Origin: Chlamydiales bacterium
GTDB lineage: Bacteria; Chlamydiota; Chlamydiia; Chlamydiales; JAAKFR01
DNA length: 64,000 nt
Reading direction: 5' to 3'
Assembly (NCBI GenBank): GCA_022601535.1
Contig: JAJACK010000001.1
Coordinates: 724,893 to 788,892 of the forward strand
Shown here: positions 19,868 to 52,001 of the stretch, one piece after another
Numbering within the stretch: position 1 is the stretch's first letter
Layout: every line of letters begins with the position of its first letter
Notes under the pieces: model-generated
Told to the model about the DNA's origin: nothing
Databases searched by the model: none
The model's input: the letters and a program-made list of their open reading frames with translations, nothing else
Translations under genes and position numbers: made by a program

Positions 19868-19896
19868 TAATTATAGCTCCAGATAACGTGACGGTA

Positions 19897-30459: not shown

Positions 30460-32676
30460 ACGATAAGATCTTGATAGTTTTGTGATAGAAAATCGGCAGT
30501 CCATTTTATCTCAGGACTGCCGTGTTCAAGCTACGAACTCGTAAGAGGACGTAGTTTGAAGGTAAATATACAATTTTACTGACAATAAATGGCGCTTGAA
30601 GAAGCAATTCATTTTTGTCGTGAACTCAAAATGCCAAATTACAGCTTAAGTTGTAGTTTGTATTAATAGTCAGCTTGACAACAAATTTTTGTGGTCAAGC
30701 TACTAAGGGCTGCTGGTGGATGCCTTGGCATCAACAGGCGATGAAGGACGTGATTACCTGCGATAATCTTCGGGGAGCTGGCAAGAAGCTTTGATCCGGA
30801 GGTCTCCGAATGGGGCAACCCAGTGGGATTAATCTCTCACTATCTCATACTGAATACATAGGTATGGGAGGCGATACTCGCTGAACTGAAACATCTCAGT
30901 AAGCGAAGGAAAAGAAATCAAAGAGATTCCCTAAGTAGCGGCGAGCGAAAGGGGAATAGCCCAAACCGGAGTCTTTGACTCCGGGGTTGTAGGACCAGTC
31001 AAAGGACCAACGACCTCTAGCCGAACACTTTTGGAAAACTGGACGACACAGGGTGATAGTCCTGTAGGCGAAAGAGGAAATTGGCAAGATTGGCACCTGA
31101 GTAGGGCCGGACACGTGAAACCCGGTCTGAATCTGGGGAGACCACTCTCCAAGGCTAAATACTCGTTGATGACCGATAGTGAACCAGTACTGTGAAGGAA
31201 AGGCGAAAAGAACCCCTGTTAGGGGAGTGAAATAGAACCTGAAACCAGCAGCTTACAAACGGTCGAAGGCCTATGCCCTTTTTAAGGGAATGGCTGACGG
31301 CGTGCCTTTTGCATGATGAGCCAGGGAGTTACGTTATATGGCAAGGTTAAAGGACTCCGTTCTGAAGCCGAAGCGAAAGCGAGTCTTAATAGGGCGTCTA
31401 GTCATATGGCGTAGACACGAAACCAAGTGAGCTATCCATGACCAGGTTGAAGCAGCGGTAACACGCTGTGGAGGACCGAACCAGTATCTGTTGAAATAGA
31501 TTTGGATGAGTTGTGGATAGGGGTGAAAGGCCAATCAAACTTGGAAATATCTTGTTCTCTCCGAAATAACTTTAGGGTTAGCCTCGAAATTAAGTCTCTG
31601 GGGGTAGAGCACTGGATTCCTGAGGGGGCCTACCGGCCTACCAATGGAAACCAAACTCCGAATACCAGAGATGAGTTCGGGAGATAGACAGTGGGGGATA
31701 AGCTTCATTGTCGAGAGGGGAACAGCCCAGACCGTCGATTAAGGTCCCTAATTCTATGCTAAGTGGGTAAGGTAGTGAAGTTTCTAAGACAGTTGGAATG
31801 TTGGCTTAGAGGCAGCAATCATTTAAAGAGTGCGTAACAGCTCACCAATCGAGAGACTTTGCGCCGATAATATTCGGGACTAAAGCATAGAACCGAAATC
31901 ACGGGTGCATCGCGTAAGCGATGCGCGGTAGGAGAGCGTAGTATGCTGCACTGAAGGTGTACCGTAAGGAGCACTGGAGCGCATACTAGTGAAAATCCAT
32001 GGCATGAGTACACGATAAAGGAGGTGAAAATCCTCCTCGCCGAAAACCTAAGGTTTCCAGGGTAAAGCTCGTCTTCCCTGGGTTAGTCGGCCCCTAAGTC
32101 AAGGCGGAAACGCGTAGACGATGGGAAACAGGTTAAATATTCCTGTACCACCTAAAACTATGGTGATGGGATGACGGAGTATGTGAAGCACGCGGACGAT
32201 TGGAAGTGTCCGTAGCACAGTGAGGCCGGTTGGCAGGCAAATCCACCAACATAAAGCTAGGCTGTGATCAAAGGGAATCTTCGGAGGAACTGATGGTGTG
32301 GAGCTAGGCTTCCAGGAAATAGTCTCTAACCGTTGATGGTGACCGTACCAAAACCGACACAGGTAGGTGAGATGAATATTCTCAGGCGCGCGAGTTAACT
32401 CTCGTTAAGGAACTCGGCAAATTAACCCCGTAACTTCGGGATAAGGGGAGCCATTTGGTGTGATTGTACTTGCTACATGAGCACTAGGTGGTCGCAGAGA
32501 AATGGCCCAGGCGACTGTTTACCAAAAACACAGCACTATGCAAACCCGCGTAAGGGGAAGTATATGGTGTGACGCCTGCCCAATGCCAAAAGGTCAAAGG
32601 GAGGTGTTAGCTTTCGGGCGAAGCACTGAACTCAAGCCCTGGTGAATGGCGGCCGTAACTATAACGGTCCTAAGGT

Positions 32677-33342
<666 letters not shown>

Positions 33343-33411
33343 TCTGGGCGCTGTCTCAACGAGAGTCTCGGTGAAATTGTAGTAGCAGTGAAGATGCTGT
33401 TTACCCACAAA

Positions 33412-33443
<32 letters not shown>

Positions 33444-33730
33444 GTTTGGTATTGGCTTCTGATTTGTCATGTGTAGGATAACCGGGAGACTTTGAAACCC
33501 CTTCGTCAGGGGGGGTGGAGTTACCCTTGAAATACCGGTCTTGACAAGTTGGGAATCTAACACGACCTCCATGAATCTGGAGCGTGGACAATGCCAGATG
33601 GGCAGTTTTACTGGGGCGGTATCCTCCTAAACAGTAACGGAGGAGTCCAAAGCTTACCTCATCATGGTCGGTAATCATGAGTAGAGCGTAAAGGTATAAG
33701 GTAAGTTGACTGTGAGACCTACAAGTCGAT

Positions 33731-33765
<35 letters not shown>

Positions 33766-33787
33766 GAAAGTGGAATCGCCGTCGCTT

Positions 33788-33824
<37 letters not shown>

Positions 33825-33851
33825 GCCACCAAGAGTTCATATCGACGTGGC

Positions 33852-33892
<41 letters not shown>

Positions 33893-34384
33893 TAGAAGGT
33901 CCCAAGGGTTTGGCTGTTCGCCAATTAAAGCGGTACGCGAGCTGGGTTCAAAACGTCGTGAGACAGTTTGGTCCCTATCCTTTGTGGGCGCAGGATATTT
34001 GAGAGGAGCTGCTCCTAGTACGAGAGGACCGGAGTGGACATACCAATGGTGTTCCGGTTGTCCTGCCAAGGGCATAGCCGGGTAGCTACGTATGGAAAGG
34101 ATAAGCGTTGAAAGCATCTAAACGCCAAGCCTCCCTCAAGATCAGATATCCCTAGAGACAACATGAAGAACACGTGTTTAATAGGTTGGGTGTGTAAGCA
34201 CAGCAATGTGTTTAGCTAACCAATACTAATCTGTCCAACGGCTTGACCATTTTTATCATCACTGGTTGCCTTACAGGCAATCGAGGTGAAAAAATGTACA
34301 GAGCTGACTATTATTACGATAAGAATGAAAAGCTCTTTGAGCGTCATTTCTTGTGAGTAAGATTGATCTATCACAAAACTATTT

Positions 34385-34566: not shown

Positions 34567-35646
34567 CTAAAGACTATATTTTACACCGGGGATCCGCCGG
34601 ATGAGATCTGTAAGACCAAAGCAAATCACAGATGTTAGAGAAAAAGAGATCAAAAACTTGAGAACAATTGGGATCTCTAAGGGAATCAATTTATATTGGA
34701 TCAGAGCTAAGAAGAAAATATGCATCAAATATGCCCCATAGGAGTCGAGAGAAAGTTTTTTGACCCAAGGGGTATTTTCATTAAATAGATCGCGGAAAAG
34801 GATTAAGAAACCAAGGCAAAGCGAAGGTGTTTCTATTGATGACCAAAGCTGTAAAAACCAAATATGATCTGTCAGGTCATAGCTATAAAAGACAAACATA
34901 AGCGCAGCTGAAACTAATCCTATCGCTAAGTAAGAGAGTCCAAAATAGGTGGAAACTGTTTCAATCCATTTGGTTTGAAAGGCGTGCATACCGATAAGAA
35001 AAAGAGTGAAGTATTGAGGGAGATGATAATACTCAAAGATATGAAAAGTTGACCACCGGTTCTGTGGAAAGTTCCAGTCACGAGTGAATAACATTTGTAT
35101 GGCAAAAAGAAAAACAAAGTACGAAAGCATGTGGTAATTTTCGAGCGTAAAAGGCTTTGCTGTAGCTGGTTTTTTTCTGATAAGCCGGTAGATAAGGTAA
35201 ATAAACATATAGCAAAAAAGCTGAATGAGAAACCATGTGTGATCAAATGTAAAATGTTTCCGTGTGAAGAAAATCGTTGTGACATACTCCCATAGATTGA
35301 GCTGTGGAGTGGGATTTTTTGAAAGATAGCCAATATAAAAAGCGAGAGGAATCACAGTGAGCGCTGTAACAGCTGTAGGAAGGATCAAGCGTAAGACTTT
35401 CTTCCATAAATAATTCAGTGGTGTCGATTTATCGTAGGAAGATGGAACAAAATAACCCGAAATAAAAAAGAGTAAACCCATAAAAAAGGTGGTGTCGATT
35501 GCTAAAAAAACAGTGAGCCATTTGATTTGAATAGGATTGGAGATAATGGCTCCTCCCTCTCCAAAGGTATAACTTACAAGGGAGTGGTGGGCAATCACAA
35601 GCAGGATAAGGAAAAGGCGAAGTGGATAGAAAAAATGTGTTTTCAT
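34567..35646 (-). CDS. acyltransferase family 3 membrane protein (O-acyltransferase)
   Basis: 359 aa with about 10 TM segments. The N-terminal LRLFLILLVIAHHS is typical of acyltransferase_3. Confidence 0.8.
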   Translation of the reverse strand: MKTHFFYPLRLFLILLVIAHHSLVSYTFGEGGAIISNPIQIKWLTVFLAIDTTFFMGLLFFISGYFVPSSYDKSTPLNYLWKKVLRLILPTAVTALTVIPLAFYIGYLSKNPTPQLNLWEYVTTIFFTRKHFTFDHTWFLIQLFCYMFIYLIYRLIRKKPATAKPFTLENYHMLSYFVFLFAIQMLFTRDWNFPQNRWSTFHIFEYYHLPQYFTLFLIGMHAFQTKWIETVSTYFGLSYLAIGLVSAALMFVFYSYDLTDHIWFLQLWSSIETPSLCLGFLILFRDLFNENTPWVKKLSLDSYGAYLMHIFFLALIQYKLIPLEIPIVLKFLISFSLTSVICFGLTDLIRRIPGVKYSL

Positions 35647-35696
35647 ACTTTTTTTATTTTTTAACCTCCCTCCATCGAGGAGAGAGGTTAAAGTTA

Positions 35697-36305
35697 TTAG
35701 CTAAGACCTGGAATCACTCCTTTAAGTATTCCTACTGCAAAGGTAATGATAAAGAGAGCAAAACCGACAACAATTGCACCAAGGACAATTGTTGCAACTC
35801 CTCTCCACGCTCCAAATCGATGCGATTCAGCAACAGTCTTTATTAGGATAATAAGACCCCAAATAAAGGCAATGGAGCTCCCAAGACCTAAAGCTTTTTG
35901 TAGCCCGGGTGCAAATGCGACGTAATAGGAGGCAAGCCCAAGAAGTCCTGCAACAATCGATGGATAGTAACTCCAACCAACTGCACATTTCACTTCGGTA
36001 TAGTGCCCTTTCCCTCCAATCCAGTGGCCACAAAATTTGTAGACCCAAGACATAAGATAAAAGGTTCCAATTGACGTAGCAATTGCTCCTAAAATAGTTA
36101 AAATATAAACAAGGCCGATATGAAGGCCTGGGTATTCTGCCTGGACTGCATCAATCCAGTAGAAACTTGAAACAATCCCCTGACACACGGCGAGCCAAAG
36201 AACTGTTTTGTGCGGATCCCTCTCAATTTGAGCGCGGATCGTTTTACGGGGCTTTGTCCAAAGTGACCCCCAAGGATAGAGCTGTTTTTCTTGTGGTGTT
36301 TCCAT
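35697..36305 (-). CDS. Yip1-domain-like polytopic membrane protein
   Basis: 202 aa. Soluble N-terminus followed by 5 TM helices, the Yip1/DUF1282-type architecture. Assignment is from architecture only. Confidence 0.5.
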   Translation of the reverse strand: METPQEKQLYPWGSLWTKPRKTIRAQIERDPHKTVLWLAVCQGIVSSFYWIDAVQAEYPGLHIGLVYILTILGAIATSIGTFYLMSWVYKFCGHWIGGKGHYTEVKCAVGWSYYPSIVAGLLGLASYYVAFAPGLQKALGLGSSIAFIWGLIILIKTVAESHRFGAWRGVATIVLGAIVVGFALFIITFAVGILKGVIPGLS

Positions 36306-36389
36306 GCCTGTTACCGAGCAAATATGATGCCAATCTTAACTGGAGAAGAAATATTCGGTTTGATGATAGGTTGTTTTAGTAAGGGTTAA

Positions 36390-37493
36390 ATGAAAAAAAT
36401 CACAATTTATACACATTTGAATACCGATATGGGAGAACGGACTCATGCACAGAAGTGTGCCAAACTCTTGGGTGTGGAAAAAATTGTCGATATTCCAACA
36501 CATATTGGTGAAAGATATGAAGAGCTTGTCATGATAAACTCAGCTTTAGCTGAGGGAGGCTATTCACCTATTTCTCCACAGTCAACACAAAATGAATGGA
36601 GCCTCTCATTGACATGGAGCGCGGGGCTGGCTGCCCTTTTAGCAAAGGGGATCAAACCTAATATTACTAAACTCTATGTGCATCAGAAAGATGAAAAGAT
36701 ATTAAAGCTGCTTTATAAGGAGATTGATCTATTGATAACAGAGTCTTTGCTCGGAAATGAGCGGGCAGCGGCTTATGGGCTTGAACGTGTTCTCTACCTC
36801 CCTCACCACTTTACAAAGAGACCTAAGCCTCTTAAAAAAAAGAGCAAAAAAATTCTCATAGGGTGTGTTTGTCGACTTGAATATTGGAAAAATGTGGAAT
36901 TTGCGTTAGAAATGGGAAGAGAAGTTGCAAAGCACCACCCGATTGCGTTTTATCTCAAGGGAGATTTTCCAAAAGAACGTGTCTACTCTTCTTATGATAA
37001 ACACCTTGCTGAAAAACTTGCTATTTATGAAAAAGAACCATGGCTTATTTGGGATAGGTCTTATACACCTTATCCAGAGGTACTTAAACTTTATTCCTCT
37101 TTTGATTTTTGTGTCCAACCCTCTGGAGCTGAAGGGGGAAGCAACGTTGTTGTTGAATTGATGTCTTTGGGAAAACCAGTGATCGTCTTGGATGAGAGTA
37201 CAAACCCTTATCTTTTTAAAGGAGGAGCTCTTTTTGCCAAGCCAAACCCTTCTATTGTGAAGACCCAGCTCGCTTTTTACCAACCACAGCTTCAATCGCT
37301 CATTGAGCTTGCCCTTCGACTGTGTGATGAAAAAGAGCGAAAGTTGTGGTCGCAAAGGGCTGAGCAAATCGCGTTTGAACGTTTTCATCCCTCTATTGCA
37401 AAAAGGCGTTTAGCTGTTATGCTTGATCCCAAGCTCGACAACTCGACATTAAAAAAACTCTATGATCAAGATCGCACCCTCTATCGGCTCTAA
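36390..37493 (+). CDS. GT-B fold glycosyltransferase (GT4/GT1-like)
   Basis: C-terminal half has VQPSGAEGGSNVVVELMSLGKPVIV, resembling the E-x7-E donor-binding motif region of GT4 enzymes. Confidence 0.7.
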   Translation: MKKITIYTHLNTDMGERTHAQKCAKLLGVEKIVDIPTHIGERYEELVMINSALAEGGYSPISPQSTQNEWSLSLTWSAGLAALLAKGIKPNITKLYVHQKDEKILKLLYKEIDLLITESLLGNERAAAYGLERVLYLPHHFTKRPKPLKKKSKKILIGCVCRLEYWKNVEFALEMGREVAKHHPIAFYLKGDFPKERVYSSYDKHLAEKLAIYEKEPWLIWDRSYTPYPEVLKLYSSFDFCVQPSGAEGGSNVVVELMSLGKPVIVLDESTNPYLFKGGALFAKPNPSIVKTQLAFYQPQLQSLIELALRLCDEKERKLWSQRAEQIAFERFHPSIAKRRLAVMLDPKLDNSTLKKLYDQDRTLYRL

Positions 37494-38493
37494 TGGGATA
37501 GGCATTTTGCCTGAGCGAACCCATATCGATCATATTGTTCCTCTCTGTCAACTCATTGGAATCCCTGTTTTGGTTATGGATCGAGAGGTGAAGGAGTGTA
37601 TTGAACTCTATTACCCTCCTATGGAGATCATAGAGTACTCTCCTGATGACTATTGCCTTGATGAACCACTTGCTGGATACGATTTCTTTGTCTATACCGA
37701 ACCTTCTCGGAAAGCAACGGGCCATTTCCAATTTAAGCGGTACTATACAACGGAGCGGAAGCGGTCGATTTTTACCCATCATGGCAATTCTGAAAAGTGT
37801 TTTGGATTTTATTGGTTTGAAAGACTTATCGACGAAGATATTTTGCTTGTCTATGGCGATCACATGTTGGAACACTTTCAGAAGATTGGATTTACAAAAC
37901 CGATGGTGAAGTGTGGGAACTACCGTCTTGCTTATGTAGAGCAACACAGAGAATTTTTCCAAGAGAGGGTCAAGCCTCATCTTTTTGAAAATATGGAGAG
38001 AAAAACAGTGCTTTATGCTCCAACCTGGGGAGCTTTGGATCGAAGAATTGAATGGCGTTTTGAATATTCAACAACACTTGAAATGCACCGTTGGATTTTA
38101 GAGACAATTCCACAAGGGTACCAAGTGCTTGTTAAGCTCCACCCCAACCACTTTATCCGAATGCCAGCTGAAATCGAGGCTCTTATTTCAGCTTACCGAG
38201 ATCATCCACACATCCGCTTTATTCATGAGCTCCCTTTGATTTATCCCCTTTTAGAACATATTGATCTCTATGTGGGAGATTTTTCTTCTGTTGGTTACGA
38301 TTTCCTCTACTTCAATCGGCCGATGTTTTTTCTAAGTGATGAAAGGGAGAGGGAAATTCATCAATGTGGTGTTGTCGTGAGGGAAGATTGCTTTTGGAAA
38401 AAAGTGGAAGAGGATCAATCACATCTATCTCCAATCCGCAAAAAAAGCTACAACCACGCTTTTGGGGAGGGGATATGCACATCGATATCATAA
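37462..38493 (+). CDS. TagB/TagF-family CDP-glycerol (or CDP-alditol) glycerophosphotransferase-like protein
   Basis: Family hallmarks VLYAPTWG, LVKLHPN and DLYVGDFSSVGYDFLYFNRPMFFL, compared with LYAPTWR / K.HP / TDYSS..FDF...KP..F in TagF-family enzymes. Confidence 0.75.
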   Translation: MIKIAPSIGSNGIGILPERTHIDHIVPLCQLIGIPVLVMDREVKECIELYYPPMEIIEYSPDDYCLDEPLAGYDFFVYTEPSRKATGHFQFKRYYTTERKRSIFTHHGNSEKCFGFYWFERLIDEDILLVYGDHMLEHFQKIGFTKPMVKCGNYRLAYVEQHREFFQERVKPHLFENMERKTVLYAPTWGALDRRIEWRFEYSTTLEMHRWILETIPQGYQVLVKLHPNHFIRMPAEIEALISAYRDHPHIRFIHELPLIYPLLEHIDLYVGDFSSVGYDFLYFNRPMFFLSDEREREIHQCGVVVREDCFWKKVEEDQSHLSPIRKKSYNHAFGEGICTSIS

Positions 38494-39485
38494 CTCGTAA
38501 CCGGTGGGTTTACACGTATGAAAATTATGCGACAAGACAGCTTTTGCCGGAGCTTAGAGAACTAGGGGTCTCTACCCGTTACCTTCCTATTTCTGATGGG
38601 GATCTCTTTCAAACCCTTTTAAATGACCCTCCTGATTGGATTCTTTGTTTCAATAATGCAACTGAATTTCCTAAACCAATCGGTGATTTTATCCGCCTTC
38701 CCACCTTCCATTGGGAATCACAAGAGCTTGGACTTGCTGCAACGATTTTGGAAAGCTCGCACGGAAGGTTGGGATACTTTGACCCTGCAGTAGACTATCC
38801 CAATGTCTCTTTCCTTCCTCACGGTGTTGATGAGAAATTGAAAGGAGAGAAGGTACGTCCATTTGATGTGAGCCATTTTGGAGATTTTATCGACTTGCAA
38901 AACCAATCTGTGACGTGGCGGCAGCTCTTTGAAAAGGATGCAATAGATGCAATTTTAGATGAAACATTGCCAAGACCAGAATCGATCTCTTTGGGAGATC
39001 TCATGATTGCGCGGGAGATGATGCAAAAAGCAAAAATGGTTCAAGGACTCATTTCAAAGACTTCTTTTCCCCTTCATCTATTTGGAGAGCATGTGGGGCA
39101 AAATCTTTTTTCCCGTCTCCCTTCAACGGTTTCTCTTCACGCTCCACACTGCTACCTTGAATCTCTCTACCTTCTGGGCCAGAGCAAAATATATGTTTCC
39201 GATCAAAGGGGTGAAGGTGTTGACCGCTGGTTCCTCCCAGCAATTTTTTCAGATTGCCTTGTATTAACCAATAAAACACCTCTTCTAGAGCAAATGATTG
39301 GCAATCAATTCGACATCTTCTATCCTAAACACGATTGGGAGGCTCTCGATGAGAGAGTCACGTATTTTCTCGACCACCCAAAAGAGAGAGAAAAGGTTGT
39401 TTGTGGGTTGAAAAAGAAACTTGCAAAGAGCCATAACTGGGAAATACGAGCAAAACAACTGATTCAACTGATGGAGCAGACTTGA
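38475..39485 (+). CDS. CgeB-like glycosyltransferase (DUF3880 / Glyco_trans_1_2-like)
   Basis: The ATG at 38475 follows GGGGAGGGG. The C-terminus (...LPAIFSDCLVLTN...FLDHPKEREKVVCGLKKKLAKSHNWEIRAKQLIQLM) resembles the CgeB family tail (H[TS]..HRA.QLL). Confidence 0.6.
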   Translation: MHIDIITRNRWVYTYENYATRQLLPELRELGVSTRYLPISDGDLFQTLLNDPPDWILCFNNATEFPKPIGDFIRLPTFHWESQELGLAATILESSHGRLGYFDPAVDYPNVSFLPHGVDEKLKGEKVRPFDVSHFGDFIDLQNQSVTWRQLFEKDAIDAILDETLPRPESISLGDLMIAREMMQKAKMVQGLISKTSFPLHLFGEHVGQNLFSRLPSTVSLHAPHCYLESLYLLGQSKIYVSDQRGEGVDRWFLPAIFSDCLVLTNKTPLLEQMIGNQFDIFYPKHDWEALDERVTYFLDHPKEREKVVCGLKKKLAKSHNWEIRAKQLIQLMEQT

Positions 39486-40258
39486 TGAAAGTGAGTCTCA
39501 TTACACCGACAAAAGAGCGAGATCCTTTTCTCCATCTTCTTTTAGACCTCATTTTGAATCAAACGCATACAGATTGGGAGTGGTTGATTCATGATAGCTC
39601 TAAATTCCCTTCGGAAAAATTGAGCTCTCCTATAGACAAACGGATTGCCTATATCTACTCAAAAAAGGATTTGAGCATTGGAGAAAAACGGAATCAGCTT
39701 GTCGATCTTGCCAAAGGGGATGTGATCTTTCATTTTGATGATGATGATTACTATTCGACCAACTACATTGAAAAAGTCCTCTCTTTGATGGAGGGATTCC
39801 ATTTTTTCTCTGCGCACTCTTGGTTCTCTTACGATGCAAAAAGTGCTGAACACTTCTATTTTACAAGCAATCATCCCGCTCAAACTCACTTTGTCCTCGA
39901 CGCAGTGAGTGGAGCTCGGATCAGAGAGATCGACTTTGGCCCTCAGATGCGACAGAAAAAAGGAGATGAACTTTCTAGGATGGGACACGGTTTTACATTT
40001 GCCTACCAAAAAGAGGTTTTCGAAAAATGTCGCTTCCCAAACCTTGATATAGGAGAAGATAGAGTCTTTTTTGAACAGGTTGAATCACAAGGATTTAAGA
40101 CATTTTCTTATGCCGATCAAGAGGGGATTGCGGTGAAGATGGTGCACGGGGAAAATATCGGTAAGATTTATCCGCAGTACCGCCTTCCTTCCTTTGTCGC
40201 CAAACAGCAACTCCCTCATTTTACATCGTATGTTGATCGATTTTCTTGTCGCGGATAA
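39482..40258 (+). CDS. family 2 glycosyltransferase (GT-A fold)
   Basis: VSLITPTKERDPFLHLLLDLILNQTHTDWEWLIHDSS and HFDDDDYY (D-x-D region). ATGA overlap with the upstream gene. Confidence 0.8.
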   Translation: MMKVSLITPTKERDPFLHLLLDLILNQTHTDWEWLIHDSSKFPSEKLSSPIDKRIAYIYSKKDLSIGEKRNQLVDLAKGDVIFHFDDDDYYSTNYIEKVLSLMEGFHFFSAHSWFSYDAKSAEHFYFTSNHPAQTHFVLDAVSGARIREIDFGPQMRQKKGDELSRMGHGFTFAYQKEVFEKCRFPNLDIGEDRVFFEQVESQGFKTFSYADQEGIAVKMVHGENIGKIYPQYRLPSFVAKQQLPHFTSYVDRFSCRG

Positions 40259-41240
40259 CCGCTATGACACAACAGAGCACTTCTCCCGCTCATTTTGCAA
40301 AGCTTTGACGGGAGCAGGGGCGACAGTCCGTTCTCATAAGGTCTCTCCAGATTCTTTCTCCCATGTGATTTCATCAATGGCAAAAGAGCTTCCTGATTGG
40401 ACTCTATCTTTCTCTGATATCACCTTAGGAGAAGGGTGCTCTATTGGAAATGTTCTTCAAATTCCTCATTTTTCCTATTTGATCGATCCAGCAATCTATT
40501 TTCTCCACCATTTTCAAGGTGATTACTCTCGCGTCTCTTGTGTAGATGAAGGGGAGTGTGAGTTTGTCAAGAATCTTGGCTTTACAAAGGTTGACTTTCT
40601 CCCTCACGCTGTTGATCGAACCCTTTTTTCAACAGCTTCGGAAAAAAGTTTTGAGACAGTGTTTTTTGGCTCTTGTATTGATTACGAGGAATTAGAGTTA
40701 ACAGATCAGCTTAAAGAGGCTGCAAATAAAGTTCTTACAACTCCATGCTCGATTCTAGAAGCTCTAGTAGAGATGGGAATTGAGCAAGAAGAGCTGATCT
40801 CTTCTCACCACTTAGTCGACCTCTACACAAGGGGAAAAGAGAGAGTAGAGGCACTTCGTCTATTGCCAGAGGTTACAATTTGGGGAGCAGGTCCTTGGGA
40901 AAAATTTGTTCCTCATGCAAAGGTTTACTCTCCCCTTCCTTTTCATGAGGTGGTCGAGGTGATGCGGCGTGCGAAGTTTGTTTTAAATAGCTCTCCTCGA
41001 TTTAAACGGGGGTATCATGAGCGGATCTTTACAGCTCTTGCATCTGGAGCTGGTGTGATCACAGCTCATACACCTTTTCTTGAAGGTTTTGATGGGGTGT
41101 TGACCTATCCTCCTGGAGAGTGGGATAAAATTCCCGATCTTCTTTTGCAGCAGACATCGGTCGATTCAGGAGCCAATCGGGTTTTAGAAGAGCACACATG
41201 GGATCATCGAGCCTGCTCGTTGTTGAAACATTTACACTGA
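40230..41240 (+). CDS. second CgeB-like glycosyltransferase
   Basis: The start MLIDFLVADNRYD (40230) is preferred over 40194. The C-terminal ...FVLNSSPRFKRGYHERIFTALASGAGVITAH...EEHTWDHRACSLLKHL resembles the 38475-39485 protein and the CgeB family. Confidence 0.6.
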   Translation: MLIDFLVADNRYDTTEHFSRSFCKALTGAGATVRSHKVSPDSFSHVISSMAKELPDWTLSFSDITLGEGCSIGNVLQIPHFSYLIDPAIYFLHHFQGDYSRVSCVDEGECEFVKNLGFTKVDFLPHAVDRTLFSTASEKSFETVFFGSCIDYEELELTDQLKEAANKVLTTPCSILEALVEMGIEQEELISSHHLVDLYTRGKERVEALRLLPEVTIWGAGPWEKFVPHAKVYSPLPFHEVVEVMRRAKFVLNSSPRFKRGYHERIFTALASGAGVITAHTPFLEGFDGVLTYPPGEWDKIPDLLLQQTSVDSGANRVLEEHTWDHRACSLLKHLH

Positions 41241-41449
41241 GGACAACACGAGACGGGCTTATCGGCCAATGTTAAGTAGGCATGGTTGCAATACTCACAT
41301 GTAACTAGTTTATTGAGAGGGGGAAGGGGGGAGTTTTTTCGCTGTTTAAAATGGGAAAACATCCATGCGGTGAAGCAAATACTCAAGAAGAGAGCGAGGT
41401 AGAGAATTAAGGCTGTGGATGTTTCAATCTCGATCATCTTCAAAGTCAA
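41204..41449 (-). CDS. small membrane-anchored zinc-ribbon protein
   Basis: One TM segment (ALILYLALFLSICFTAWMF), then CEYC...CCPQC (CxxC x16 CxxC). Last gene of the ExbBD operon. Confidence 0.45.
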   Translation of the reverse strand: MTLKMIEIETSTALILYLALFLSICFTAWMFSHFKQRKNSPLPPLNKLVTCEYCNHAYLTLADKPVSCCPQCKCFNNEQAR

Positions 41450-45896: not shown

Positions 45897-46472
45897 ATGG
45901 GTCTAAAAGAAACAGTCAAAAGTATGAGAACACTACTTCACACAATTGAAGGAGATCTCGATAAAGTGGAAGCGGGAAATAAAGCGGCAGGCCAAAGAGC
46001 GCGCAAACTCACGATTCAATTTCAAAAAGTTGCAAAAGTCTTTAGAAAAGAATCTGTAAAAAGTTCTGAGATGAAGAAGATTAAAGCAACGAAGAAAAAA
46101 ACAGCAGCAAAAAGAAAGCCTGCAGCTAAGAAGAAGGTCGTTGCTAAGAAGAAAGTGGCTAAGAAGAAAGCAGTAGCAACGAAAAGAAAGGCTCCAGCTA
46201 AGCGAAAAACAGCGACAAAGAGAAAAGCTCCAGTCAAGAAGAAAGTGGCTAAGAAAAAAGCGGTAGCAACGAAAAGAAAGGCTCCAGCTAAGCGAAAAAC
46301 AGCGACAAAAAGAAAAGCTCCAGCAAAGAGAGCAGCTACAAAAAAGCGTTCAACGAAAAGAAAAACAGTGACGAAAAAAAGAGCACCTGTACGTAAAAAG
46401 ACAACAACACGTGCAAAAACTGCTCGACCTAAAAAACGAAGTGCTGCTAAAGTGCAGCGTAAGAAAAGATAA
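45897..46472 (+). CDS. hctA: chlamydial histone H1-like protein Hc1
   Basis: The N-terminal domain KETVKSMRTLLHTIEGDLDKVEAGNKAAGQRARKLTIQFQKVAKVFRKESVK aligns with C. trachomatis Hc1 (ALKDTAKKMTDLLESIQQNLLKAEKGNKAAAQRVR...KIAKVYRKESIK). Lys/Ala-rich tail. GAGGAGGAGG RBS. Confidence 0.92.
   Translation: MGLKETVKSMRTLLHTIEGDLDKVEAGNKAAGQRARKLTIQFQKVAKVFRKESVKSSEMKKIKATKKKTAAKRKPAAKKKVVAKKKVAKKKAVATKRKAPAKRKTATKRKAPVKKKVAKKKAVATKRKAPAKRKTATKRKAPAKRAATKKRSTKRKTVTKKRAPVRKKTTTRAKTARPKKRSAAKVQRKKR
46146..46325. repeat. 2 x 90-bp tandem repeat inside the hctA tail
   Basis: 46146-46235 and 46236-46325 are near-identical. Each encodes KKKVAKKKAVATKRKAPAKRKTATKRKAP[V/A]. Confidence 0.9.
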
Positions 46473-46566: not shown

Positions 46567-47733
46567 ATGGACAATGAATTAGATCTGTTGCGTAAGATCG
46601 ATAAGATAGATCTCAAACTCCTCTTTAAATACCAAGAGCACTTTATTCCTCACATTGAGGAGGTGGTCGATGAGTTTTTGGAGTGGTTTTCAAAAAATAC
46701 AACGTGGCTAGCCTATTTTAGAGATAAGGATCTCTTCTCATTTAGAACACGAATTCTTGAATACTGGAAGGCATTTTTTACTCTTCTAAATACCCCCGAT
46801 TTCATTTCATCTCGCCATAGGGTTGGAGATTTGCATGCAACAAACCAAGTTCCTGCAGATGACTACATCTGTGCTTACAATCATATCCTAAACCGTTTTC
46901 TTGAGATTGCTCAAAAGAATAAGGCGATTGCAAAGGAAGATAAAGACCTCCTTTTTCTCTCAATACATAATCGTGGGATCGCTGATATTTGTATCATCTT
47001 GAAAAAATTTGCCCAGTCAGATCGGCGAATGCATAGCCAAATACGGGATCAGCATAGAGAAACCTTAATGGGGATTTTTACACTGACAATCTCAGATGAA
47101 TTTCTAAACCCAATGACTGCTCTGCTCAATAATATTCAACTGACTAAAGAGCTTGTAATGGAAAATGAAAGAGCGGTCAGCCGCCTTGAGAACTCTGAAA
47201 AAATCGTCATGGATTGTGTTCATGTAATCACAACATTACGTCTATTTGCAAAGCAAGATGTCAGTGTTGAAAAATCGATCGCCTCGACCAATTGCATCGA
47301 TGTGCTCGATCAAGTGCTTTTCTTTCTTGAAACGACGTCTAAGGCAGAGGATATCACCATTATAAGAGATTTCGACCCCTCTTCTCCAGCAGTTGAAATG
47401 AAAGTGGCAGACATCCGTTATACCTTTTTAACGCTTTTTGTTTTTGTCATATCACTTGTTGTTCATTGTCCTGTTAGAGAAATCATTGTTTCGGTTAAAC
47501 CTGCCGATGGTGATCTTGAAATTGTCATTAAGGATAGTGGGCAAGGGCTTTCTAAAGAAGATAAAGATCTGGTCTTTACTCCATATTTTTCAAAAGTGAA
47601 ATCTAAAATTAAGGGGGCCGATTTGCTTTTTTGTCGGGAAGTAATTGAGGAAAACGGTGGAAAAATCTCCCTTGAAAGTGTAGAAGGGAATGGAACAACA
47701 TTTACAATCCGTTTCCCTGGGCAAAAGAAATGA
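46567..47733 (+). CDS. globin-coupled-sensor-like protein with degenerate histidine-kinase core (pseudo-kinase)
   Basis: The N-terminal ~150 aa resembles the protoglobin/GCS domain (...VVDEFLEWF...RHRVGDLHATNQVPADDYICAYNHIL, compared with HemAT [20 protein letters not shown]). The DHp box reads ISDEFLNPMTAL, with D where the phospho-His sits in SHELRTPLTAI. The N-box Asn residues are absent. The G1 box DSGQGL is retained. Confidence 0.6.
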   Translation: MDNELDLLRKIDKIDLKLLFKYQEHFIPHIEEVVDEFLEWFSKNTTWLAYFRDKDLFSFRTRILEYWKAFFTLLNTPDFISSRHRVGDLHATNQVPADDYICAYNHILNRFLEIAQKNKAIAKEDKDLLFLSIHNRGIADICIILKKFAQSDRRMHSQIRDQHRETLMGIFTLTISDEFLNPMTALLNNIQLTKELVMENERAVSRLENSEKIVMDCVHVITTLRLFAKQDVSVEKSIASTNCIDVLDQVLFFLETTSKAEDITIIRDFDPSSPAVEMKVADIRYTFLTLFVFVISLVVHCPVREIIVSVKPADGDLEIVIKDSGQGLSKEDKDLVFTPYFSKVKSKIKGADLLFCREVIEENGGKISLESVEGNGTTFTIRFPGQKK

Positions 47734-48110
47734 GCAAAATGATTTTAACAATTGACGATGATCGCGATGTGCAAGAGGTCTTTTCTGCAGTGTTGGCTCA
47801 AGCAGGCTACAGTGTTTGTCAAGCATTGAGCGGTGAAGAAGGTTTAGAAACGTTAAAAACAAACTCGATTGACCTTATTCTTCTCGATCTTCATATGCCA
47901 GGAATGAATGGAATTGACACATTTATTAAAATTAGAGAGATGAATTTAGAGGCACCTGTTTGTATCATCAGTGCTTATGTTGACGGATATCAAGAGGAGT
48001 TACAAAAGCTTACAGAGAGTGGATACCACTTTTCTACTCTAGACAAACCTGTTGGGATGAAGCAACTTCTGTCTAAAGCAGAGACATTAGTAAATGGTAC
48101 AACAACATAG
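47730..48110 (+). CDS. stand-alone response regulator receiver
   Basis: ILTIDDDRD, the phospho-acceptor LILLDLHMPGMNG, and the conserved Lys in LDKP. ATGA overlap with the upstream gene. 126 aa, no output domain. Confidence 0.88.
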   Translation: MSKMILTIDDDRDVQEVFSAVLAQAGYSVCQALSGEEGLETLKTNSIDLILLDLHMPGMNGIDTFIKIREMNLEAPVCIISAYVDGYQEELQKLTESGYHFSTLDKPVGMKQLLSKAETLVNGTTT

Positions 48111-48241
48111 CTTAATGAAAAAAATCGATTCAGCCAATTCAGTGTTTCATTTTTTTCTGGAAGATTGTGAAAAAGTGTGGTAAGAGAAAAGCAAGTGCAT
48201 AGTTGGCCGACGAATTTTATCCTAAAAAAAGGAGAGCTATA

Positions 48242-48685
48242 ATGACAAAGATATTCCCGATTTTGATTGCAGACGATGACCTCGGCGATTGTCAATTGGT
48301 ACAGAAAGCTCTGCAACAAAACAAGGTTTTAAACCCTCTGTTTGTCGTGCATGATGGTATTGAGTTACTCGATTTTCTAAATCAGAGAGGAGAGTATAGT
48401 GATGCAGAAAAATTTCCACCCCCCGGTTTACTTCTTCTAGATCTCAATATGCCGAAGAAGGATGGGCGTGAGGCTTTGAGTGAAATCAAGTCAAACCCCA
48501 AGCTACGCTCCATCCCTGTTGTGATTATGACAAATTCTAGGCAAGAAACAGATATAGCAATCTCGTATGAGCTTGGAGTCAATTCTTATATTGAAAAGCC
48601 CCTGACGTTTGAGTCTTTAGTGGATTTAGTTAAGGCATTAAATGTCTATTGGTTTGAAATTGTAACTCTCCCGAATCATGAGTAA
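48242..48685 (+). CDS. stand-alone response regulator receiver (Rcp1-like)
   Basis: The ATG at 48242 follows GGAG. ILIADDDLGD, LLLLDLNMPKKDG, VVIMTNS and the Lys in IEKP. Resembles phytochrome-associated single-domain regulators. Confidence 0.85.
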   Translation: MTKIFPILIADDDLGDCQLVQKALQQNKVLNPLFVVHDGIELLDFLNQRGEYSDAEKFPPPGLLLLDLNMPKKDGREALSEIKSNPKLRSIPVVIMTNSRQETDIAISYELGVNSYIEKPLTFESLVDLVKALNVYWFEIVTLPNHE

Positions 48686-49040
48686 AAAAATAATTGTTAT
48701 CGATGATGATGAAGATGTCTCTTTGCTTCTTTCTTTCCGCTTAAATAATGAGGGATATACTGTTATCACTGCAAGCACTGGGAAGAAAGGTTTGGAAAAA
48801 TTGGCAGATGACTCATTTAGCCTTATTTTATTAGACAAGAATCTCCCTGATATAAATGGTCTTGAGCTTGCAAAAACAATTAAATCAGATCCAAAAATCT
48901 CTAATCTTCCGATCATCATTATTTCGGGTTTTAGAAAACAGCCCGAAGATGAAATTGCAGAAGCTTTTTTACTCAAGCCGTACGAGTGGAATGAGCTGTC
49001 AAGCTTGATAAAAGAACTTATTTCGGAAAAGAAAAGTTAA
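48678..49040 (+). CDS. stand-alone response regulator receiver (paralog of 12493-12840)
   Basis: IIVIDDDEDVSLLLSFRL, LILLDKNLPDING and FLLKPYEWNEL. Same architecture and C-terminal motif as the 12493 receiver. Confidence 0.88.
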   Translation: MSKKIIVIDDDEDVSLLLSFRLNNEGYTVITASTGKKGLEKLADDSFSLILLDKNLPDINGLELAKTIKSDPKISNLPIIIISGFRKQPEDEIAEAFLLKPYEWNELSSLIKELISEKKS

Positions 49041-50118
49041 AAGCAGTCCCTTCTCCAAGTTCACTTTGAACATTGAGCGTCCCATGATGAAGTTCGATCA
49101 ACTCTTTTGCAATGGCAAGTCCTAAGCCAGAACCTTTGACCCCCGTTTGCATAGATTTTTTTCCAAACTGTTTAAACGATTCAAATAGGTGGGGAAGGTC
49201 ATCAGGAGCAATCCCCGGCCCTGTATCAGCAACAGAACACTCAATACGATCTTTTTGGTCTGAAACATTAATTGTCACTTCTCCTGTTTCGGTAAATTTA
49301 AGAGCATTGCCGAGAAGATTCGTGAAAATTTGAATGATTCTTAAACGGTCGCAGTTGAGTTGTACACGTTCTGAATTTACAACTAATTTAATTCCTTTTT
49401 TAGCAAAAGGGCTTTCATACGCTTTTGCAAGCTCTGCAATCAACTCTTCAAGTTCAACAACTTCAAAATTGAGCTCCATTTGTCCCGCTTCAATTTTAGT
49501 CACATCAAGCAAGTCATCGAGAAGTATTCTCAGTCGATCAATCCCATTTTGTGAAATAGAGAGCATGTTTTTTTGCTGGTCATTCAAAGCTCCAGCACTT
49601 CCATCTAAAACACACATGATCCCTTCTTTTATATAGGTCAATGGAGATCGAATTTCATGGGAAACCATCGAAACAAAATCGGATTTTATTTTACTCAAAT
49701 GTTGGAGAGCAAGTTCTTGTTGCTTTCGATCAATTGCGTAGTGGATCACTCGTTTGATCAATCCAGGAGAAATTTCATCTTTTGTGAGAAATCCGTGAAC
49801 CCCTAAATCAGAAAGTTTGGAAATAATTAAATCGTCTTCAAGGCCTGTTAGGATAATCACAGGAAGTTCAGGCTTTAACGCTTTTATCTTCAGAACAACT
49901 TCTGTCTCTTTTGCATCGGGGAGATTTAAATCTGTAAGAATGATATCTAAATCATTCTCTTTAACAATTTTGACAGCCTCTTCTAAGCTTTCAGCTGTCT
50001 TGATCGAGTAGAGATTTGTGATCAAAGAGAACTGTTTTTTTATCAAAAAAAGATCGCTTGGATCGTCCTCTATCAGGAGTAGGGTTATTTTTTTGCTATT
50101 ATTTGTCATTTTCCCCAA
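49018..50118 (-). CDS. hybrid protein: N-terminal receiver domain plus HisKA/HATPase histidine kinase
   Basis: REC region (LLLIEDDPSD, IILTDLNLPD), then the H-box VSHEIRSPL, N-box NLLGNALKF, DTGPGI and GSGLGLAIAKELIELHHG. Confidence 0.9.
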   Translation of the reverse strand: MGKMTNNSKKITLLLIEDDPSDLFLIKKQFSLITNLYSIKTAESLEEAVKIVKENDLDIILTDLNLPDAKETEVVLKIKALKPELPVIILTGLEDDLIISKLSDLGVHGFLTKDEISPGLIKRVIHYAIDRKQQELALQHLSKIKSDFVSMVSHEIRSPLTYIKEGIMCVLDGSAGALNDQQKNMLSISQNGIDRLRILLDDLLDVTKIEAGQMELNFEVVELEELIAELAKAYESPFAKKGIKLVVNSERVQLNCDRLRIIQIFTNLLGNALKFTETGEVTINVSDQKDRIECSVADTGPGIAPDDLPHLFESFKQFGKKSMQTGVKGSGLGLAIAKELIELHHGTLNVQSELGEGTAFNFSFPK

Positions 50119-50180
50119 AAAAATGAATGTAAAAAATTTTAAGTAATATGTAAATTCATTTTCATAGCAAAAGGTGTTTT

Positions 50181-52001
50181 ATGGCGGATATGGAAAATAA
50201 ATCAGATTTTTTAACAATGTTCAACGCAGTTCCAGCTTTGGTCTTACTCTTAGACTCTCAAGGAAATATTATCTCTATCAGTCAAAAGGTCATTGATTTT
50301 TTAGGATATACGTTAGAAGAAGTGCTTGGGAAAAACTTGAGCAGCTTGTTTTCAGGAGATGATAAAGGTTATAGCTTTGAAAAAATAGTGGGGAATAACC
50401 AGCAAAATCAGCAGTACAGTTGTTCGGATAAAAAGGGCAACAATAAGCTTGTAAAGATGGAATTGTCTTCAATTGAATTAGAAGGAGAGGGGCGGTTTAT
50501 TGCGTCACTTTCCACTGCTGATGAACCTTTTGAGGATAAGTTAACATTTGTCAAAATACTCAACGCGGCGCCAAATGCAATGGTATTGGTCGATGAGAAA
50601 GGGGAGATTGTTTTTGCAAATGACAAGCTAGAAGAGCTTTTTGGCTATACAAAAGAAGAGATGATTGGCAAAAAGGTTGAAGTTCTCCTCCCCGAAAATA
50701 TTCGAGAGAAGCATGTTGGATTGAGAGATGCATATATTTCTCAAAATCCAACCACACGGATGATGGGAGAAGGGAGAGAGCTTTTTGGGAAAAGTAAAAC
50801 AGGAAAACAGATTCCAGTAGAAATTGGGCTTGGCCCGACAACCATCAATGATAAGCCTTATGTCATTGCAACAATCGTAGATATCACTGAGCGTAAGCAG
50901 CGGCAAGAACTTTTTCAAAAAGCAATTGAAGCTTCTCCAACAGCGATGTTGATGGTCAATCAAAGTGGAGTTATTGTGTTTAGCAATGCAAGGGTGACAC
51001 AGATGTTTGGTTACGATCGTTCAGAGCTTATTGGACAACCAATTGAAATGCTTCTTCCCGAGAGCTTAAAGAAAAAACATGTTGGATTAAGAGATGGTTA
51101 CATTGCACGGCCAGAGCCACGTCAAATGGGGATGGGGCGAGATCTTTTTGGAATACATAAGTTTGGATACGATGTTCCAGTTGAAATTGGCTTGAACCCG
51201 CTAAAAATCGGTGATGAAATGCATGTGATTGCGGGAATTATAGATATTTCCCAACGAAAACAGCAAAATCAAAAAATAGACTCGATGATCAAAGAGTTAG
51301 AACGTTCGAATAAAGAGTTAGAAGAGTTTGCTTATGTCGCTTCTCACGATCTCCAAGAGCCGATTCGGAAAGTTCAATCTTTTGGAGATCTTTTACTCAA
51401 AGAGTATGGAGATAGGCTTGACGGTGAAGCAAAAGAGTATATAAAACATATGAGCAGTTCGATTTTAAGGATGCGTAGATTGATCAATGATCTTCTTGCC
51501 TTTTCTCGTTTATCAACACAGACAAAGGAATTTACCTCTACAGACCTCAATTTAGTGCTCACCAATGTGTTGTCTGATTTAGAAGAGAAAATCAAAACAG
51601 CACACGCAGAGATCGAAGCAGATCAATTGATCACAATTGATGCGGATGAAACACAGATGCATCAACTCTTCCAAAACTTCATAACCAATGCACTCAAATT
51701 TCATAAGGCCGATGTAAATCCAGTGATAAAAATTCGTGGCCGTGTCGAAGATGAATATTACGTGATCGACTTTAAAGATAATGGGATTGGCTTTGAAATG
51801 GAGTTTGTGAAAAAAATATTTACGATTTTTCAACGCCTCAATTCAAAAGAAGCGTACGAAGGGACTGGGATTGGCCTTGCCATGTGTAAAAAAATTGTTG
51901 AGAGACATGAAGGGCAAATTACAGTATTGAGTGAAGTGGGTGAGGGAATAATCTTTACCTTGAAATTGCCGATCAAACAAAGAGCTGAAAACAACTCTTA
52001 A
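50181..52001 (+). CDS. triple-PAS sensor histidine kinase
   Basis: Three PAS-like repeats, each ending ...GK/GR.LFG..K.G..[IV]PVEIGL. H-box ASHDLQEPIRKV. N/G boxes NFITNALKF, DNGIGF and GTGIGLAMCKKIVERHEG. Confidence 0.9.
   Translation: MADMENKSDFLTMFNAVPALVLLLDSQGNIISISQKVIDFLGYTLEEVLGKNLSSLFSGDDKGYSFEKIVGNNQQNQQYSCSDKKGNNKLVKMELSSIELEGEGRFIASLSTADEPFEDKLTFVKILNAAPNAMVLVDEKGEIVFANDKLEELFGYTKEEMIGKKVEVLLPENIREKHVGLRDAYISQNPTTRMMGEGRELFGKSKTGKQIPVEIGLGPTTINDKPYVIATIVDITERKQRQELFQKAIEASPTAMLMVNQSGVIVFSNARVTQMFGYDRSELIGQPIEMLLPESLKKKHVGLRDGYIARPEPRQMGMGRDLFGIHKFGYDVPVEIGLNPLKIGDEMHVIAGIIDISQRKQQNQKIDSMIKELERSNKELEEFAYVASHDLQEPIRKVQSFGDLLLKEYGDRLDGEAKEYIKHMSSSILRMRRLINDLLAFSRLSTQTKEFTSTDLNLVLTNVLSDLEEKIKTAHAEIEADQLITIDADETQMHQLFQNFITNALKFHKADVNPVIKIRGRVEDEYYVIDFKDNGIGFEMEFVKKIFTIFQRLNSKEAYEGTGIGLAMCKKIVERHEGQITVLSEVGEGIIFTLKLPIKQRAENNS

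Follow-up and report, generated by a model that had tools for sequence, protein, structure and literature searches.

What would a chlamydia do with an enzyme resembling the polyol-phosphate transferases of wall teichoic acid (WTA) synthesis? The question is raised by a 64,000-nucleotide (nt) stretch of a Chlamydiales bacterium genome (assembly GCA_022601535.1, contig JAJACK010000001.1, positions 724,893 to 788,892 of the forward strand), hereafter the window, in which five consecutive plus-strand genes encode a family 4 glycosyltransferase (GT4), a TagF-like protein, a CgeB-like protein (CgeB-like 1), a family 2 glycosyltransferase (GT2) and a second CgeB-like protein (CgeB-like 2). To our knowledge, the only envelope glycans described in chlamydiae are a truncated lipopolysaccharide (LPS) of the type restricted to 3-deoxy-D-manno-octulosonic acid (Kdo) and the septal peptidoglycan ring. 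By hidden Markov model (HMM), predicted fold and motifs, the TagF-like protein is, as far as computation can show, a polyol-phosphate transferase of the TagB/TagF family. Judged by sequence comparison, such enzymes are an old and expanded family in environmental chlamydiae and not an oddity of the window genome.

The match of the TagF-like protein to PF04464 scores 59.2 bits (cutoff 22.1) and runs from residue 165 to 305 (profile positions 178-306 of 367), thus being confined to the C-terminal lobe; the same family is present in 120 of 120 homologues among the matches listed. The hallmarks from which the first-pass annotation of this DNA had placed the gene in the TagB/TagF family (YAPTWG, KLHPN and GDFSSVGYDF..FNRPMFF) are all located in the protein and, together with the profile score, bear that placement out. 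NCBIfam adds weak matches to TarF and TarL (25 and 16 bits, the cutoffs being 550 and 1000). A profile built from 41 homologues and run against PDB sequences matched only polyol-phosphate transferases, namely Bcs3-CroT (1.8e-8), TarL (1.7e-7) and TagF (4.6e-7). The AlphaFold model (predicted local distance difference test, pLDDT, 89.9; predicted template modelling score, pTM, 0.89) has a predicted GT-B-like fold of two Rossmann lobes that lies nearest to the solved polyol-phosphate transferases: Foldseek ranks 1-11 are the TagF structures 3L7I/J/K/L/M (E ~1e-11, TMq 0.60-0.66), followed by Bcs3 and Cps3D, the rest being mostly UDP-GlcNAc 2-epimerases. With 343 amino acids (aa) the protein amounts to a bare GT-B core, similar in size to the primases TagB and TarF and not to TagF (729 aa) or TarL (583 aa). 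It is 100% identical to a protein of the Chlamydiales metagenome-assembled genome (MAG) S4CHLAM45, which, together with the Hc1 histone-like gene of the window (Table 1), marks the genome as chlamydial.

Conservation singles out residues in a pattern like that of the characterised enzymes. Invariant in 41 of 41 homologues are H107-G108, K112, A-P-T-W, K225-x-H227-P228 and G272-D273-x-S275-S276, and H107-G108-x-x-x-K112 recurs in all five paralogue groups described below, with a Gly-to-Arg change in one group E open reading frame (ORF) as sole exception. In CroT, H96 is the putative base, K101 and H233 hold the pyrophosphate, and both histidines are essential (PMC10299916); the pattern and spacing of H107, K112 and H227 match this triad. 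HMMER aligns H227, within K-L-H-P, with 'RMH' of TagF and 'VKVHP' of Bcs3, that is, with the donor-pyrophosphate histidine (TagF H584, CroT H233). H107, K112 and H227 are proposed as the catalytic residues. The counterpart of H107 would be TagF H444; this we infer from motif pattern and invariance because sequence alignments reach the C-terminal lobe only, and a phmmer search of N-terminal-lobe residues 99-193 against TagF and CroT returned one chance match only.

Three positions after the catalytic histidine, enzymes for glycerol-phosphate carry Pro and those for ribitol-phosphate carry Gly (PMC10299916). The corresponding S110 of the window protein fits neither signature. Across the 41 homologues this donor-pocket position is Ser in 36 and Pro in five, and the orthologues adjoining CgeB-like 1 are divided between the two. 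Since the pocket residue is Ser, not Pro or Gly, cytidine diphosphate (CDP)-glycerol is not to be assumed as donor. With N-terminal-lobe motifs of its own and an atypical pocket residue, the TagF-like protein is best described as a distinct chlamydial subfamily.

In bacterial and archaeal genomes, with each species represented once, a scan gave 394 confirmed relatives of the TagF-like protein, and the neighbourhoods of the best 80 were compared. By label, most of these 80 are MAGs of Chlamydiota, with Parachlamydiales, Rhabdochlamydiaceae, Parachlamydia and Rhabdochlamydia among the names; chlamydial gene order is also seen in the few that bear the label 'Verrucomicrobia', 'uncultured bacterium' or 'Chlamydia trachomatis'. 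Record labels appear wrong for loci L006, L030, L043, L052, L058 and L071, and the 'Chlamydia trachomatis' MAG of L006 carries the operon of the environmental clade (67% identity). Searching a profile against 1.84 billion cluster representatives yielded 452 matches at E <=1e-30, the best 150 of which are compact (280-415 aa), the match spanning all or nearly all of each protein or at least the larger part of it; 6356 further matches, with E up to 1e-3, would represent the TagF family at large. TagF-like genes are thus widespread and multi-paralogous in environmental Chlamydiota, contrary to the rarity implied by the first-pass annotation. No paper on the TagF-like genes of chlamydiae was found in the literature.

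Tree and neighbourhood analysis distinguish at least five paralogue groups, each with a conserved context of its own. Group A contains the window protein and adjoins CgeB-like 1; group B, in relatives with two tandem copies, lies between the GT4 and the group A gene. Group C follows mcsA/mcsB and in five loci is convergent with a cytidylyltransferase-family gene, group D adjoins mreC and an aminotransferase (AspC) gene, and group E follows a weak FlgN-like gene and is divergent from mutY and a GT4 gene. Proteins of groups D and E and the McsB-linked ones are of equal length to the window protein and 29-36% identical to it, and the catalytic motifs are kept in every group, barring rare single-ORF substitutions. 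Groups C, D and E thus share the invariant motifs with the window locus, whereas their neighbourhoods are without the GT4, CgeB-like and GT2 genes of the operon.

Group C differs from the window in a further respect: in five loci it adjoins a LicC-type cytidylyltransferase-family gene (NTP_transf_3; coordinates in Table 1), of which the window has none. These genes are annotated as 'phosphocholine cytidylyltransferase family' (NCBI) or 'L-glutamine-phosphate cytidylyltransferase', and their product is a candidate maker of the CDP-activated donor for group C. A search for homologues gave 6634 matches, and among the 120 matches listed none carries the S4CHLAM45 name.

Most Parachlamydiales and Rhabdochlamydiaceae genomes carry a tandem TagF-like pair within a conserved block (L023-L084, e.g. 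L044, L058 and L032), ordered as divergent mutY and GT4, FlgN-like, TagF-E, TagF-D, and convergent mreC and aminotransferase, so that the pair adjoins cell-shape and peptidoglycan-precursor genes. The FlgN-like gene precedes the group E paralogue in 39 loci, with 23 bits against a Pfam threshold of 30.5. The only direct link found between the TagF-like family and LPS-core enzymes is a single chlamydial metagenome contig (L087), where a gene of the LPS heptosyltransferase family GT9 overlaps a TagF-like gene by 19 nt.

Table 1. Coordinates of genes and other features; positions refer to the window unless preceded by a locus number.
Feature	Coordinates	Strand	Pfam match	Remark
GT4 gene	36390-37493	+	Glycos_transf_1 7.8e-12; Glyco_trans_1_4 7.5e-11	operon gene 1
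TagF-like gene	37462-38493	+	Glyphos_transf PF04464 4.7e-16	343 aa
CgeB-like 1 gene	38475 (ATG)-39485	+	Glyco_trans_1_2 PF13524 5e-7	
GT2 gene	39485 (ATG)-40258, alternative TTG 39482	+	Glycos_transf_2 PF00535 6.3e-14	
CgeB-like 2 gene	40230 (ATG)-41240	+	PF13524 1.5e-12	final operon gene
Yip1-domain polytopic membrane protein	35697-36305	-	PF04893 3.3e-17	
Acyl_transf_3 (OafA/OpgC-like) membrane O-acyltransferase	34567-35646	-	PF01757 2.7e-25	
Small zinc-ribbon protein	41204-41449	-		N-terminal membrane segment; CxxC...CxxC motif
Chlamydial Hc1 histone-like gene	45897-46472			
23S ribosomal RNA gene	30693-34250			
Group I intron	32644-33283			within 23S gene
Intron ORF	32829-33254			LAGLIDADG homing endonuclease
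DUF3419 protein	17266-18339	-		methyltransferase-like region
Fusion protein	19861-21939	+		692 aa
Signalling genes	46567-52001			
NTP_transf_3 genes, ~230 aa	L047:4884-5600, L081:8081-8806, L079:9235-9939	-		convergent with McsA/McsB-linked paralogue
NTP_transf_3 genes (same set)	L042:9010-9948, L039:10442-11158	-		
GT9 gene with overlapping TagF-like gene	L087:9066-11221			
Eukaryote-like inserts	L011:11791-14937, L009:11812-15249, L005:13875-15965			between operon and exbBD

The five genes of the window overlap one another by 32 nt (GT4/TagF-like), 19 nt (TagF-like/CgeB-like 1), 4 or 1 nt (CgeB-like 1/GT2, for the TTG or ATG start) and 29 nt (GT2/CgeB-like 2), and they are called identically and independently in other assemblies of the same organism. 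They form one translationally coupled operon; the first-pass annotation had called a single operon almost certain. A scan for promoters and terminators gave counts at shuffle or chance level and is uninformative either way. Membrane-spanning segments are absent from all five proteins. The Yip1 and acyltransferase genes, already recognised at first pass as lying upstream on the other strand and matched here by Pfam, encode polytopic proteins; Yip1, with four transmembrane-like segments, is divergent from the operon across an 84-bp spacer. At the other end, the zinc-ribbon gene overlaps the 3′ end of the CgeB-like 2 gene by 37 nt in antisense, and it is conserved together with the p131, ExbD, ExbB and TPR (1023 aa) genes downstream.

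In relatives the order is Yip1(-), GT4 - TagF(x1-2) - CgeB1 - GT2 - CgeB2, Zn-ribbon - p131 - ExbD - ExbB - TPR(-). It is found, in full or partially on short contigs, in L005-L022 and partly in L052, about 17 related MAGs in all, and the five-gene operon is missing from the remaining 62 chlamydial loci, where TagF-like genes stand without it. Identity of the TagF-like protein across operon-bearing loci falls from 68% to 38%. Yip1 stands beside the operon in 16 related genomes (L005, L008-L011, L013-L015, L017-L022 and L052) and no other membrane protein keeps its linkage with the operon. The GC content of the operon (0.41-0.44) and that of its third codon positions (GC3) lie within the range of housekeeping genes. 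From this comparative evidence the five-gene operon is, by our reading, vertically inherited and restricted to one clade of uncultured genomes. Recent horizontal transfer from a Gram-positive locus, for which the first-pass annotation had suggested a check of base composition and codon bias, is rejected because both GC and GC3 are those of the native genome and relatives as distant as about 38% protein identity keep the gene order. Its other alternative, an LPS-core cluster standard across Chlamydiae, is likewise set aside, the operon being confined to one MAG clade and holding neither GT9 nor GT30 genes.

Between the operon and exbBD the relatives carry variable eukaryote-like proteins (U-box with Sel1, HEAT, WD40 and mitochondrial-carrier-like), and the interval looks like a hotspot for accessory, effector-like genes.

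The remaining enzymes of the operon are glycosyltransferases, and their first-pass assignments as GT4, GT2 and a CgeB-like pair agree with the Pfam matches. An E-x7-E motif (AEGGSNVVVE) can be read in the sequence of GT4, which matched nothing among PDB sequences. GT2 has a GT-A fold with a DDDD acidic motif, again as read from sequence, weak NCBIfam matches to TuaG, WcaA and PglI, and weak generic matches among PDB sequences (GalT1 and a beta-1,3-GlcNAc transferase); in L008 a second GT4 stands where GT2 would be. CgeB-like 1 and 2 match PF13524 with 30.2 and 48.2 bits (cutoff 25) and are full-length paralogues (21% identity, E 3e-11). The earlier label 'DUF3880-type' does not fit, as neither protein matched DUF3880 at E up to 0.1. 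The CgeB-like 2 model (pLDDT 93.1) finds its nearest folds in ManT (7QSG), SenB, BshA and 6EJI, all GT4-type GT-B enzymes, and would make the protein an ordinary member of that type. Its family numbers 49 matches in all, every one of chlamydial type; some CgeB-like homologues are named 'spore maturation protein CgeB' by JGI, and one (P0169) carries a Neochlamydia label.

At this locus the acyltransferase occurs in the window genome alone, the equivalent position being empty of it in all related loci. It may be an accessory enzyme that would decorate the product. Its NCBIfam match to MdoC (55 bits, cutoff 338) brought up an osmoregulated periplasmic glucan system; this was rejected, the match being far below cutoff, the gene not conserved at the locus and an OpgH-type membrane GT2 absent.

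The partners expected of a glycopolymer pathway were sought by a Pfam scan of 45 of the 48 ORFs of at least 150 aa in the window, six of which matched no family. The three ORFs outside the scan are probably spurious (two antisense inside the GT4 and TagF-like genes, one over a tRNA-His gene). Among the scanned ORFs there is no nucleotidyltransferase, ABC exporter, Wzx/Wzy or priming phosphoglycosyltransferase, in line with the first-pass statement that CDP-glycerol synthase, flippase and ABC exporter are absent from the window. LCP ligase, TagO/TagA, TagGH and TagD/TarIJ are missing both there and among the conserved neighbours in relatives, and KpsMT/KpsED and KpsSC are missing from the window. 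LPS-core families (GT9, GT30 WaaA, WaaL) were found neither in nor beside the operon, and the HxGH cytidylyltransferase motif neither in the window nor in the flanks of relatives, where NTP_transf_3 genes turned up solely beside the McsB-linked paralogue, in the five loci named above. A look for donor or export functions among the inserts between operon and exbBD in relatives met only eukaryote-like repeat proteins and proteins that match no family.

The locus thus fails as a member of the WTA pathway (linkage, CDP-alditol synthase, exporter and ligase genes not found in the window or next to relatives' operons), of a kps-type group 2 capsule system (no Kps genes in the window; a single-domain enzyme of 343 aa) and of an LPS-core cluster (no core families; operon only in L005-L022 and L052). 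To call it a teichoic-acid-style glycopolymer cluster, as the first-pass annotation did, goes too far: the TagF-like enzyme is the sole defining part present, and it is primase-sized.

The reading that we prefer, with a probability of roughly 0.4, is that a short oligosaccharide decorated with a phosphodiester is assembled step by step, at the cytoplasmic face, on an acceptor in the membrane. Five soluble cytoplasmic transferases would act in sequence at this face of the inner membrane and yield a short hetero-oligosaccharide of up to four sugars with one phosphodiester-linked alcohol, the TagF-like enzyme being predicted to transfer alcohol-phosphate from a CDP-activated donor onto a hydroxyl and so form the phosphodiester. 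As acceptor we envisage a molecule already present in the membrane, with lipid A-Kdo or some other glycolipid as the most plausible candidates; economy favours lipid A-Kdo, since core-type assembly needs no dedicated primer or exporter. Export would proceed via general machinery encoded elsewhere, and in the window genome the acyltransferase may O-acylate the product. What we infer is the cytoplasmic-face site, a product that is short and not polymeric, an acceptor in the membrane, and the donor. The coupling of a paralogue to GT9 in L087 counts for a link to the LPS core, though we regard this evidence as thin. Several points weigh against such an assembly: GT9, GT30 and WaaL are absent in and next to the operon, and the GT9 link comes from one locus, with a paralogue of another group; the remaining ~0.93 Mb of the contig outside the window may harbour export and donor genes; protein length is a weak argument against polymerase activity; and the correspondence of H107 with TagF H444 is drawn from motif pattern and invariance, the alignments with TagF covering the C-terminal lobe only.

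A teichoic-acid- or capsule-like polymer is a rival that we consider unlikely. Here the TagF-like enzyme would prime or polymerise poly(alditol-phosphate) on an undecaprenyl-phosphate or lyso-phosphatidylglycerol-Kdo anchor, the glycosyltransferases would supply the linkage unit or the chain decorations, and exporter and donor genes would be found at other sites of the genome. The polyol-phosphate transferases of WTA and capsule synthesis agree with the enzyme in family, fold and catalytic residues, the glycerol-phosphate signature Pro occurs in many orthologues adjoining CgeB-like 1, and TagF-like enzymes are known to serve Gram-negative bacteria in making capsules and a poly(glycerol 3-phosphate), or poly(Gro3P), linker (PMC11666461, PMC10299916). 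This is countered by Ser as pocket residue of the window protein, by a bare core without the N-terminal extras or TPR domains of known polymerases, and by the want of TagO/TagA, TagGH/KpsMT/KpsED, KpsSC, LCP and TagD/TarIJ genes in the 64 kb and in flanks of up to 8 kb in operon-bearing relatives. A broader proposal, which we hold doubtful, is that environmental Chlamydiota make an undescribed envelope glycoconjugate with phosphodiester-linked alcohols, teichoic-acid-like in chemistry, by means of an ancient family of five or more TagF-like paralogues spread over the phylum, some of which adjoin mreC and dapL/aspC, genes of cell wall and division. The operon would then be the elaboration of one clade, and Yip1 a novel anchor or translocator in place of Wzx or an ABC exporter.

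Five soluble enzymes, with neither lipid-carrier primer nor exporter in the window, could also glycosylate a protein or another cytoplasmic target, which by analogy would need no such partners. The Bacillus spore-crust proteins CgeB/SpsA/SpsB and the modification of flagellin glycans by TagF-like enzymes would be such analogues; two of the enzymes belong to PF13524, JGI names CgeB homologues after spore maturation and the TagF-like family TagB/SpsB, and the group E paralogue stands behind the weak FlgN-like chaperone gene. We nonetheless judge it rather improbable that a protein is the target: no candidate substrate is encoded in or beside the operon, the consistently linked neighbour Yip1 is polytopic and points to the membrane, and the FlgN-like match is sub-threshold and concerns a different paralogue. 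Much less credit still goes to secreted effectors that modify host or inclusion-membrane glycans. The enzymes lack signal peptides and transmembrane segments, as is usual for type III effectors, and eukaryote-like repeat proteins are encoded directly downstream of the operon in relatives; however, these genes vary between genomes and lie outside the operon, and five coupled biosynthetic enzymes in strict order resemble a pathway. The least probable origins, which we think scarcely tenable, are those set aside above, a recently acquired Gram-positive teichoic locus or a standard LPS-core cluster of all Chlamydiae. They could appeal to the best, if weak, NCBIfam names (TarF, TarL and TuaG) and to the GT9 coupling in L087. 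They run against native base composition and a gene order kept to ~38% identity, nearest relatives (80 of them) that are chlamydial by label or gene order, the distinct compact subfamily formed by the 452 cluster representatives, a chlamydia-restricted CgeB-like 2 and the 62 loci without the operon.

If the TagF-like genes are active, some glycan of environmental chlamydiae carries phosphodiester-linked alcohols, a chemistry unreported for the phylum, which would bear on surface charge, on recognition by the host and possibly on cell division. The family hints at an envelope chemistry new to Chlamydiota; the enzyme types are familiar, and what is apparently undescribed so far is their phylum-wide, multi-paralogue occurrence there. 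The value of the present analysis lies in the family map, with its five groups, their contexts, the intact catalytic residues, the atypical Ser and a cytidylyltransferase candidate for one group. It makes the question testable by enzyme assay, perhaps in cultured genera (Parachlamydia and Rhabdochlamydia being labels among the MAGs). The five-gene operon is known from uncultured genomes only, which limits direct testing.

Further features of the window are given for completeness. Just upstream stands the ribosomal RNA operon, whose 23S gene contains a group I intron encoding a LAGLIDADG homing endonuclease; the relative L005 (GCA_942490925) likewise has a LAGLIDADG ORF upstream of the five-gene operon, at the equivalent site. 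A 23S group I intron with a LAGLIDADG endonuclease is known in Simkania negevensis. The DUF3419 domain is one that we take to be the BtaA-type domain of betaine-lipid synthesis; if so, a peculiarity of the membrane lipids is possible. The 692-aa fusion joins Pyr_redox_2 and a dimerisation domain with a VTT/DedA-type membrane domain. The signalling genes comprise a protoglobin-HATPase sensor kinase, response regulators, a hybrid histidine kinase and a triple-PAS histidine kinase, a density that seems high for a chlamydial genome.

Among known systems, the spore-crust genes of Bacillus subtilis (cgeB, spsA and spsB) encode CgeB-type PF13524, SpsA-like GT2 and TagB/SpsB-family proteins. The window operon presents the same combination of enzyme families, a likeness at the level of Pfam domains; sporulation and crust proteins are absent, and the CgeB-like proteins are without a DUF3880 match. 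With the characterised TagB/TagF enzymes the TagF-like protein shares the HMM family, the two-lobe GT-B-like fold, the size of TagB/TarF, the K-x-H-P and (G/T)D-x-SS motifs of the C-terminal lobe and, judged by its pattern, the HG...K motif of the N-terminal lobe. Sequence similarity to these members is limited to the C-terminal lobe (14% identity over the fold alignment), and the chlamydia-specific motifs DHLxPLC and YYP of the N-terminal lobe set the protein apart. The locus likewise lacks the TagO, TagA, TagD, TagGH and LCP context, and the host phylum is diderm and obligately intracellular. A further comparison is with the TagF-like domains of Gram-negative group 2 capsule enzymes, namely CroT of Bcs3 from Haemophilus influenzae b and Cps3D/Cps7D and CpsA/CpsC of Actinobacillus pleuropneumoniae: CroT is the best profile match in the PDB, and the window protein has the proposed catalytic His, Lys and His. 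The capsule enzymes belong to kps-type loci that include KpsMT/ED/SC, and many of them combine several domains (glycosyltransferase, phosphatase, TPR or SH3b), whereas the window enzyme stands alone as a single domain and the 64 kb contain no genes for capsule export. They nevertheless offer a Gram-negative precedent for polyol-phosphate transfer, one that includes 'transition transferases' making a single addition.

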